Source of the DNA: Candidatus Micrarchaeota archaeon
GTDB lineage: Archaea; Micrarchaeota; Micrarchaeia; Anstonellales; Anstonellaceae
Direction of reading: 5' to 3'
Assembly (NCBI GenBank): GCA_013331805.1
Contig: DUFS01000013.1
Coordinates: 1-10,107, forward strand
DNA length: 10,107 bases
Shown here: positions 666 to 6,623 of the stretch, piece by piece
Layout of the letters: every line of letters starts with the position of its first letter
Position numbering within the stretch: the first letter of the stretch is position 1
Translations under genes and position numbers: made by a program
The notes under the pieces: generated by a model
Database searches by the model: none
Seen by the model: only the letters and a program-made list of their open reading frames with translations
Told to the model about the DNA's origin: nothing

Positions 666-730
666 GCGTCAGAAGCTACTCCGTTGGGTCATCGCACAAG
701 GCTAACCCACTGGAGCGGTGTCATCATCGC
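666..730 (-). ncRNA. Box C/D guide sRNA (sRNA-1) with a non-canonical internal hairpin in place of C'/D'
   Basis: Minus strand reads GCG-AUGAUGA(box C, 727-721)-CACCGCUCCAGU(12-nt guide)-GGGUUAGCCUUGUGCGAUGACCC(hairpin)-AACGGAGUAGCUU(13-nt guide)-CUGA(box D, 672-669)-CGC. It has a terminal GCG/CGC stem, lies in an intergenic gap, has a TATA-like element about 23 nt upstream, and its guides are antisense to conserved 23S rRNA motifs. Confidence 0.8.
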
Positions 731-1665: not shown

Positions 1666-1723
1666 GCCTCAGCCGCTGTTAACCACATCATGAGTGTCAG
1701 CGGTTGTTCATATCATCATCGGC
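1666..1723 (-). ncRNA. Canonical archaeal box C/D guide sRNA (sRNA-2)
   Basis: Minus strand reads GCC-G-AUGAUGA(C, 1719-1713)-UAUGAACAACCG(12 nt)-CUGA(D', 1700-1697)-CACUC-AUGAUGU(C', 1691-1685)-GGUUAACAGCGG(12 nt)-CUGA(D, 1672-1669)-GGC. All four boxes are present, both guides are 12 nt, and the GCC/GGC terminal stem has K-turn geometry. Confidence 0.92.
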
Positions 1724-6574: not shown

Positions 6575-6623
6575 TCAGGTTCATATGCTGTTCTGCACCG
6601 GCAGCGCTTCGGAGCATCATCAT
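6575..6623 (-). ncRNA. Probable box C/D guide sRNA (sRNA-3) with a Watson-Crick hairpin at the C'/D' position
   Basis: Minus strand reads AUGAUGA(C, 6623-6617)-UGCUCCGAAGCG(12 nt)-CUGC-CGGU-GCAG(hairpin; D'-like CUGC)-AACAGCAUAUGAAC-CUGA(D, 6578-6575). Intergenic and of similar size to sRNA-2, but the terminal stem is weak and no clear TATA is visible. Confidence 0.62.

Follow-up and report, generated by a model that had tools for sequence, protein, structure and literature searches.

A double-guide box C/D sRNA of Candidatus Micrarchaeota whose inner C'/D' motif may be a reduced K-turn with a single G.A pair

Box C/D ribonucleoproteins (RNPs) of the Archaea are the structural model for RNA-guided 2'-O-methylation, and this model rests on two symmetric sites for L7Ae. 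What becomes of the inner site in a guide RNA that has no box D'? The question is raised by a stretch of 10,107 nt from Candidatus Micrarchaeota (hereafter the window; contig C24 of the source genome, G000), in which a sequence-only reading had proposed three box C/D small RNAs (sRNAs), here designated sRNA-1, sRNA-2 and sRNA-3 and all carried by the minus strand. In two of these, sRNA-1 and sRNA-3, the kink-loop (K-loop) of the C' and D' boxes was thought to be replaced by a base-paired hairpin, as the mark of a lineage-specific guide class with a single kink-turn (K-turn). Judged by its boxes, guides and orthologues, sRNA-1 is a genuine double-guide box C/D sRNA of Candidatus Micrarchaeota, and its inner motif is, we think rather likely, a reduced K-turn with a single G.A pair that still recruits L7Ae.

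The minus-strand letters quoted for the three RNAs are all present, the hairpin of sRNA-1 occupies exactly the 23 positions given for it, and GGGUUA can be written as pairing with UGACCC, and GC with GC, around the loop CUUGU with GA bulged. The whole RNA reads GCG-AUGAUGA-CACCGCUCCAGU-GGGUUAGCCUUGUGCGAUGACCC-AACGGAGUAGCUU-CUGA-CGC (coordinates in table 1). It has the RUGAUGA and CUGA boxes of a C/D sRNA, a terminal stem and guides with N+5 sites, and genes for L7Ae, Nop5 and fibrillarin are all encoded in the source genome; it lacks the internal CUGA/UGAUGA K-loop with tandem sheared G.A pairs. A query of 201 nt around sRNA-1 matched 24 of 40 relatives at 77–94% identity, and the matches were confined to query positions 54–132: in the relatives the RNA of about 60 nt alone is conserved, and its flanks diverge. 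By family, the matches fall in 23 of 24 same-family genomes, in the single genome of a second family (1/1) and in none of 15 genomes from ten further families. Exact-pattern scans returned 40 loci in genomes, most of them titled Micrarchaeota, and 44 in metagenomes, and genomes and metagenomes combined gave 61 distinct versions; the public records that carry them are titled Candidatus Micrarchaeota, Micrarchaeia or Anstonellaceae, with two titled Candidatus Iainarchaeum. A terminal stem GC/GC is found in 33 of 34 aligned orthologues, whereas in the source genome the 3' flank is CGC instead and its pairing with GCG is offset by one base. No RNA sequencing run was listed as containing this stretch. 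A scan of the window with the Rfam models at E values up to 1 gave no match for sRNA-1 or sRNA-3, in keeping with the suggestion that standard finders would miss such an RNA.

The inner motif departs from the archaeal norm in a defined way. Where box D' would stand sRNA-1 reads GUUA, and where box C' would stand it reads AUGACCC; the lack of a CUGA D' box had been recognized correctly, and the second sheared pair is gone as well. What remains is a Watson-Crick -1 pair and a 3-nt bulge, after which G(1b) lies opposite A(1n), an arrangement compatible at the level of sequence with a K-turn, without the second sheared pair A(2b).G(2n) that a K-turn should have. The derived form is laid out as a 4-bp helix, W, A, stem I, a loop, stem I, N-A-U-G and the other strand of the 4-bp helix, that is, two covarying helices separated by a 2 × 4 internal loop in which W-A faces N-A-U-G. 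It is found in at least 52 of the 61 versions, including that of the source genome (the version at locus L023 was not parsed by our script and looks derived), so that the derived state is stable and, as had been proposed, lineage specific. The same at least 52 versions lack the 2b.2n G.A pair, which is present in 8 of the 61.

Covariation was computed on an alignment of 34 derived versions (A1, 340 cells). The cells are paired in 97.4% of cases, compared with 20–35% when the partner strand is slid; both sides of a pair have changed in 36 cells, compared with 9.4 in shuffles; and the covariation score is 0.318, compared with 0.096 in shuffles. None of 500 shuffles equals either of the last two values, and the covariation on which the hairpin had been staked is thus found in the relatives. 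The four pairs of the outer helix show changes on both sides in 13, 9, 2 and 4 of the 34 versions, the fourth of them (U705-A689 in the source genome, pair 27-45 of the alignment) occurring as UA 28 times, CG twice, GC twice and otherwise in two. The second pair of stem I is CG in 25, GC in 6, AU in 1, UA in 1 and otherwise in 1, with both sides changed in 8 of 34. RNAalifold, unaided, recovers both the outer helix and stem I and places no pairs in W-A or N-A-U-G. Between these variable helices, the -1 pair of stem I is G-C, 1n is A, and L2, L3 and 1b are A, U and G in all 34 versions; over the parsed versions L3 is U in 60 of 60 and L2 is A in 58 of 60. The pair that could be drawn between U704 and G690 never covaries, being A.G in 4 of 34 and never C-G. 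Position 2n is U in 45 and A in 5 of the 50 derived versions that could be parsed unambiguously, two G calls (L077 and L102) reflecting an ambiguous register. One version (L024) holds about 54 extra nt within the loop of stem I, with the core unaltered. A K-turn register without the extra base on the nonbulged strand was tried and rejected: the shifted register was accepted because the covariation of UGG...CCA and GAG...CUC fits no other. The description as a base-paired hairpin is thus right for the outer helix, which is real and covaries, and for the motif as a whole it is half right.

The eight remaining versions that were assigned (L025, L080, L083, L095, L100, L154, L160 and L172) have a K-turn of the usual kind, its G.A pairs in tandem: NNGA (AUGA, UUGA, UCGA, UGGA or CUGA), a stem I of 2–3 bp with its loop, a 3-nt bulge (mostly AAU), GA and two more pairs, between spacers of 11–12 nt; several of them are titled Iainarchaeum or Micrarchaeota. 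Because these canonical versions have a stem I, the ancestral inner motif is, on this comparison, a K-turn and not a K-loop. The notion of a replaced K-loop accordingly falls away, the form kept in the sister lineages being a K-turn with a stem I of 2–3 bp; and the canonical C'/D' motifs in 8 of 61 orthologues, which might have betrayed recent decay, show instead that the variant derives from a canonical motif.

From the conservation and covariation observed here, together with the complementarity of guides and targets and the core protein genes observed (described below), we infer that L7Ae binds and kinks this motif. The canonical K-turn would be the ancestor; in the clade of the source genome the A2b.G2n pair would have been lost, the former 2b nucleotide being taken into a Watson-Crick pair, by which stem II grew to 4 bp, and position 2n turning into an unpaired or wobble U/A. 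The tandem sheared pairs would have disappeared because the 2b adenine was absorbed into the helix and the 2n guanine is gone. The inner motif would stay a second L7Ae site, on which the Nop5–fibrillarin unit would assemble, and the RNP would remain two-sided. This reading, which we consider probable though well short of certain, is preferred because the six core nucleotides are invariant between covarying helices, which a plain hairpin does not explain; the same six nucleotides, a minimal L7Ae site, speak against the earlier description of sRNA-1 as having a single K-turn. A precedent is described by Hofler et al. (2021; PMC8413462), according to whom Pyrococcus L7Ae binds a C'/D' motif with stem I and a 1n-1b A.G pair, without a 2n-2b pair and with U at 2n. 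For the yeast snR51 motif they give a dissociation constant of at most 100–200 nM with Pyrococcus L7Ae and a crystal structure (7OZQ), and yeast Snu13 is reported there not to bind the snR51 C'/D' motif (PMC8413462). In our analysis, the invariant core of sRNA-1 (A at 1n and at L2, U at L3, G at 1b and the -1 pair) coincides with what Hofler et al. found to be required, along with stem I, for such binding.

The guides on either side of the motif were then compared with ribosomal RNA (rRNA). The large subunit (LSU) rRNA gene was not found in the source assembly, where no P-loop or H74 words are present (domain V is unassembled), and targets were therefore read from LSU genes of relatives in the same genus. 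The D' guide pairs with GCUGGGGCGGUA in all six of the relatives' LSU loci that were examined first, with one terminal mismatch and two G.U pairs. In the Iainarchaeum-type versions it is UACCGCCCCAG, the full complement of the Micrarchaeota LSU P-loop (the comparator being this and not the Iainarchaeum LSU itself); in Micrarchaeota it carries CCGCUCC or CCGUCCC, the changes being solely C to U with G.U pairing preserved. The claim that the first guide is kept at 12 nt thus stands, and the pairing-preserving changes show selection on it. For the D guide the partner is AAGCUACCCCG, which lies, in E. coli numbering, some 190 nt downstream of the P-loop target. One relative (G003) has the target CCCUG with the guide CAGAG, compared with CCCCG and CGGAG in the six other genomes for which both are known, which is, as the sequences read, a single compensatory guide–target change. 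Alignment to the annotated E. coli 23S gene places the N+5 positions at G2251 for the D' guide and U2438 for the D guide, the numbering having been checked by anchor words at 2058-2060 and 2444-2457. Gm2251 and Um2552 are conserved methylations of the peptidyl-transferase centre. Gm2251 is listed as a conserved site whose equivalent in Haloarcula is made by fibrillarin with an sRNA (PMC11542601, Table 1). Because of its conserved complementarity to the P-loop and its placement on G2251, the D' guide adjoining the odd motif is functional by all the sequence criteria at hand; the nucleotide methylated is thus predicted to be G2251. Among the small set of nine transfer RNAs (tRNAs) retained from ARAGORN, none pairs with a guide at more than 9 of 11–12 positions.

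Of the core proteins, Nop5 is unusual. The product of 270 aa in the source genome aligns to residues 114-365 of the 366-residue Pyrococcus chain, so that the coiled coil and the C-terminal domain are present and the N-terminal, fibrillarin-binding domain is absent. Of 31 genomes of the order, 30 have a stop-to-stop Nop5 frame no longer than 350 aa, and the other has one of 436 aa. A search for a separate N-terminal domain with the Pfam model NOP5NT gave no match, the same model scoring above its cut-off in none of 14 control genomes. An AT-rich, TATA-like box lies immediately 5' of the Nop5 start, and no frame is found upstream of it.

Several points weigh against an inner motif that binds L7Ae as a kinked site. 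The minimum free energy (MFE) fold of the free RNA closes A703-U691 and U704.G690, giving a continuous hairpin with a GA bulge; the MFE fold of sRNA-1 as a whole is not unusually stable (z = -1.47). In standard K-turns the 2b adenine gives a stabilizing A-minor contact, and since 2b is G or C in 8 of the 52 derived versions, the standard kink cannot be general. Stem II is disrupted in the 7OZQ structure, and its authors did not take the motif for a bona fide C'/D' motif (PMC8413462). The D guide has one A.C mismatch in every LSU that we examined. Stem II of sRNA-1 exceeds that of the canonical orthologues by a base pair and an unpaired base, and the second spacer of sRNA-1 has 13 nt where theirs has 12. 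Because of this longer stem II the measuring of the target may be shifted and G2251 may not be the modified base; an enzyme that counts from the G.A pair rather than from the helix end could act on G2250 or U2249 instead. In yeast, unusual C'/D' motifs are reported to shift the modified site (PMC5389607). Finally, because Nop5 here is without its N-terminal domain, the RNP may differ in architecture from the textbook model.

Some of these points would be natural if the inner segment were a plain hairpin to which no L7Ae binds, in an RNP with a single K-turn as in most yeast small nucleolar RNPs, where the second Nop5–fibrillarin unit is held by the Nop5 dimer and the guide–target duplex alone. 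The continuous MFE hairpin, the replacement of the 2b adenine in 8 of 52 versions and the atypical, shortened Nop5 of the order all suit it, as do the loss of the tandem G.A pairs and the covariation of the former 2b nucleotide in a Watson-Crick pair (UA 28, CG 2, GC 2); moreover, more than 80% of yeast guides are said to lack functional C'/D' motifs and yet to work (PMC8413462). A hairpin of this kind nevertheless leaves unexplained why, beside pairs that covary, all 34 versions keep the -1 G-C pair, both A(1n) and the "bulged" A(L2), U(L3) and G(1b) without change, why U704 changes to A in 4 of 34 and never to C, the better pair, and why RNAalifold leaves the core positions unpaired; archaeal L7Ae, unlike Snu13, is moreover reported to bind so reduced a motif (PMC8413462). 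We regard the plain hairpin as unlikely, though it is the main rival. An RNP that is asymmetric in the eukaryotic manner, with one true K-turn and L7Ae at the C/D end an inner helix that L7Ae reads differently or not at all, and a Nop5 without its N-terminal domain throughout the order, is a further reading, and this too seems to us unlikely. That sRNA-1 has a decaying inner motif and a relic D' guide, and acts as a single guide through its D guide, is very improbable: the missing D' box, the two G.U pairs and the terminal mismatch to the P-loop could be taken for decay, but the D' guide is among the best-conserved parts of sRNA-1, the changes in its paired stretch over the 61 versions are all C to U and keep the pairing with GGGG (CCGCCCC, CCGCUCC, CCGUCCC), the derived motif is fixed and conserved in at least 52 versions, and the predicted site is the universally conserved Gm2251. 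The reduced K-turn with a single G.A pair therefore remains the reading that we prefer.

To what extent does the variant motif define a class of guides? sRNA-2 is the sole Rfam match in the window, and a weak one (sR14, 16.6 bits, compared with a cut-off of 38). Its D' guide pairs perfectly over 10 bp with GGUUGUUCAU in six of six LSUs and points at U2552 of the A-loop. Copies of sRNA-2 were found in 22 of the relatives' loci (in the set L041-L067); in four of them (L055, L059, L060 and L062) an inner stem of about 20 nt is present and box C' reads AUGUAGA, which is, by its sequence, a second and different remodelling of the C'/D' region. The third credible guide, on contig C64, has an unusually long second spacer of 15 nt and a 10-bp match to the conserved word GUCAAGUCAC in a stretch of contig C10 that resembles small subunit (SSU) rRNA. 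A genome-wide scan for the hairpin pattern that had been proposed as a search term (a C box, 11–13 nt, a hairpin of at least 4 bp, 11–14 nt and CUGA) found 10 loci in the source genome and 3 in the reversed genome; besides sRNA-1 and sRNA-3, none of the 10 is sRNA-like on inspection, terminal stems being weak or absent, so that the search yielded no further convincing sRNA. The comparison of 68 C-box...D-box candidates with rRNA by 9-bp runs was too noisy to use, and a match on contig C43 lies inside open frames. The credible guides of the source genome thus comprise two canonical ones, sRNA-2 and the sRNA on contig C64, and one variant, sRNA-1. Because the two canonical guides have K-loops of the ordinary kind and sRNA-3 is unsupported, the variant inner motif is, on these sequences, one family and not the guide class that had been suggested.

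The case of sRNA-3 deserves its own account, as it had been counted as the second of two hairpin-bearing sRNAs among three; only sRNA-1, conserved and with a covarying hairpin, bears out that count. In its favour as a guide, sRNA-3 is intergenic and has exact C and D boxes and a first spacer of 12 nt, and its CUGC...GUGCAGA can be read as CUGA...RUGAUGA with each noncanonical pair made Watson-Crick. Its second spacer, moreover, has the 8-mer AUAUGAAC and the 6-mer AACAGC in common with sRNA-2, where the 8-mer starts with the final C-box base and runs on into the D' guide, and the 6-mer lies within the D guide; sRNA-3 could be a rearranged copy of sRNA-2 or be descended from it. No homologue was found in 40 relatives, and 13 of the relatives' loci, which carry the orthologous M50 protease gene, have nothing similar and no C/D candidate at the corresponding place downstream of that gene. 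Its spacers have no match to rRNA beyond 6–7 nt and none in the tRNAs retained, it has almost no terminal stem, its first spacer is, as the letters read, self-complementary, and its fold (z = -0.63) is equalled by 54 of 200 shuffles. By chance, 0.92 occurrences of TGATGA-N35-65-CTGA are expected per window; 3 were found, and since 14 of 200 shuffles reach 3, this word pattern alone proves little; hairpin-type matches likewise occur in the reversed genome, at the 3 loci mentioned. That sRNA-3 is a second, young member of the variant architecture, with all four C'/D' pairs turned Watson-Crick (CUGC/GCAG), is decidedly unlikely; as a sequence it is probably a chance occurrence or an orphan.

Table 1. 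Coordinates of the sRNAs, their parts and associated genes (window positions unless a contig is named).
Feature	Position	Strand	Details
sRNA-1, complete double-guide box C/D sRNA	666..730	minus	3-nt flanks GCG...CGC included
C box AUGAUGA of sRNA-1	721..727	minus	UGAUGA unchanged in 34/34 aligned orthologues
D' guide CACCGCUCCAGU, 12 nt	709..720	minus	pairs with LSU P-loop GCUGGGGCGGUA; N+5 = G2251
Inner segment GGGUUAGCCUUGUGCGAUGACCC	686..708	minus	GGGUUA 708-703, GC 702-701, CUUGU 700-696, GC 695-694, GA 693-692, UGACCC 691-686
Outer Watson-Crick helix, 5' strand GGGU	705..708	minus	at the former box D' place; pairs with 686-689
Internal loop, nonbulged strand	703..704	minus	U704 (2n): U 30/34, A 4/34; A703 (1n) invariant
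Stem I and loop CUUGU	694..702	minus	G702-C694 = -1 pair; C701-G695 = -2 pair
Internal loop, bulged strand, box C' remnant	690..693	minus	G693 (L1, variable), A692 (L2), U691 (L3), G690 (1b)
Outer helix, 3' strand ACCC	686..689	minus	A689 = former 2b adenine, now Watson-Crick with U705
D guide AACGGAGUAGCUU	673..685	minus	pairs with LSU AAGCUACCCCG (E. coli 2434-2444); N+5 = U2438
D box CUGA of sRNA-1	669..672	minus	unchanged in 34/34 aligned orthologues
sRNA-2, canonical C/D sRNA	1666..1723	minus	D' CUGA, 5-nt loop CACUC, C' AUGAUGU
"sRNA-3"	6575..6623	minus	C- and D-box-like words around the hairpin CUGC-CGGU-GCAG: AUGAUGA (6623-6617), 12 nt, CUGC-CGGU-GCAG (6604-6593), AACAGCAUAUGAAC, CUGA (6578-6575)
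Third credible C/D sRNA	contig C64:7094-7145	minus	intergenic; 5-bp terminal stem CGGCA/UGCCG; D' CUGA, C' GGAUGA
Nop5 gene	contig C14:5505-6314 (locus L037:1459-2271)	minus	270 aa
Gene beside sRNA-1	35-649	minus	204 aa; weak arginine-deiminase/DDAH-like matches, under Pfam cut-offs
Gene beside sRNA-1	791-1609	minus	272 aa; no Pfam family matched

Some features of the surroundings of sRNA-1 should be recorded. The flank 3' of its D box is CGCCCC in the source genome and GCAAAA in nearly all relatives, and below window position 650 the G+C content falls from about 52% to about 40%. Positions 651-679 of the window, which hold the last 11 nt of sRNA-1 and the hairpin that follows it (CCCCG-UAA-GGGG), are repeated with 97% identity at the extreme end of another contig (C41:1-29). 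We considered this 29-nt segment as an integration site and rejected the idea, as no integrase is found on the 5.8 kb of contig C41; the segment may represent a repeat, a branch in the assembly or an old insertion. In one relative (G014), a second C-box...D-box RNA lies about 110 nt upstream of sRNA-1 (locus L002:1385-1460) and has the same starting GCGAUGAUGACAC; its interior, in which no C'/D' words occur, forms a perfect palindromic hairpin around CUCGAG, and it may, from its sequence, be a paralogue of sRNA-1 with a truly hairpin-only interior. A rod-like self-fold of sRNA-1 by pairing between the guides (CUCC with GGAG) was also discarded, the complementarity being gone in the CCGCCCC and CCGUCCC versions.

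The source genome amounts to 1.19 Mb in 83 contigs, with 52.9% G+C, and is estimated as 91.5% complete. At that completeness no FtsJ/RlmE gene was found in it; the gene is present in all 14 control genomes. The match to SSU rRNA on contig C10 (197-4064, minus strand) covers 2306 nt, compared with a model of 1478 positions, and directly downstream of it there is another, partial match, to model positions 829-1467; this suggests that the 16S gene has large insertions or introns; the LSU genes of several relatives are likewise long or split in pieces.

With these data, a very small guide set can be sketched for a DPANN genome, namely three credible guides, two of which are aimed at G2251 and U2552, sites of universally conserved methylation. 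An inner motif that lacks the 2n-2b pair has become fixed throughout an archaeal clade, and the guide concerned is the one aimed at G2251 of the P-loop. The inner motif of sRNA-1 is a variation on a well-known machine, and it offers a natural archaeal test case for the minimal K-turn that L7Ae accepts, for the need to occupy the second site and for the relation between the length of stem II and the methylated position. If the RNP were indeed asymmetric, the enzyme that makes Gm2251 and Um2552 in these reduced archaea would be unlike any solved archaeal sRNP.

How does sRNA-1 compare with known systems? For ribosomal K-turns of the Kt-23 type, variants with a base other than G at 2n have reportedly been studied by Lilley's laboratory, and in these the 2b adenine still faces 2n. 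Such variants share with sRNA-1 the G.A pair kept at 1b.1n and the U or A at 2n, whereas in sRNA-1 position 2b pairs with the next base and leaves 2n extra. Full-text literature searches, with subscription journals outside their coverage, returned no description of C/D sRNAs in Micrarchaeota or DPANN. Like the canonical archaeal C/D sRNAs of Pyrococcus and Pyrobaculum, as these are described in PMC7994747 and PMC6009581, sRNA-1 has RUGAUGA and CUGA boxes and a 2-bp terminal stem, two guides of 12–13 nt that follow the N+5 logic, nearby rRNA targets in the same domain, and fibrillarin, Nop5 and L7Ae as partners. It differs from them in the lack of CUGA and of the second sheared pair in its inner motif, in having a stem I where the canonical K-loop has a bare loop, and in a stem II of 4 bp, all Watson-Crick, with an extra unpaired base. 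In those reviews the archaeal C'/D' motif is described as a K-loop bound by L7Ae, and some "non-canonical K-motifs", known to us by description, are reported for Pyrobaculum (PMC7994747, PMC6009581). Among them a motif like that of sRNA-1 may occur. Archaeal guide RNAs are said to conserve the 2n-2b G.A pair (Hofler et al. 2021; PMC8413462). By its predicted target, E. coli G2251, sRNA-1 belongs with the P-loop guides listed in Table 1 of PMC11542601, an sRNA for Gm1950 of Haloarcula marismortui and small nucleolar RNPs for Gm2619 of yeast, Gm4196 of human and Gm2620 of Arabidopsis; in all of these, methylation is guided by RNA and not left to a stand-alone enzyme such as RlmB (PMC11542601).

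A close counterpart of the motif itself is the C'/D' motif of snR51 bound to L7Ae of Pyrococcus furiosus (7OZQ; PMC8413462). Both have a stem I whose -1 pair is intact, a sheared pair of A(1n) with G, a purine at L2, one U at position 2n and another that is flipped out, and both lack a 2n-2b G.A pair, a likeness that we judge from the text of the paper and not from structures; box C' is AUGACUA in the crystal and AUGACCC in sRNA-1. They differ in that snR51 is eukaryotic and its stem II is disrupted in the crystal, whereas sRNA-1 is archaeal and its stem II is a conserved, covarying helix of 4 bp (PMC8413462).

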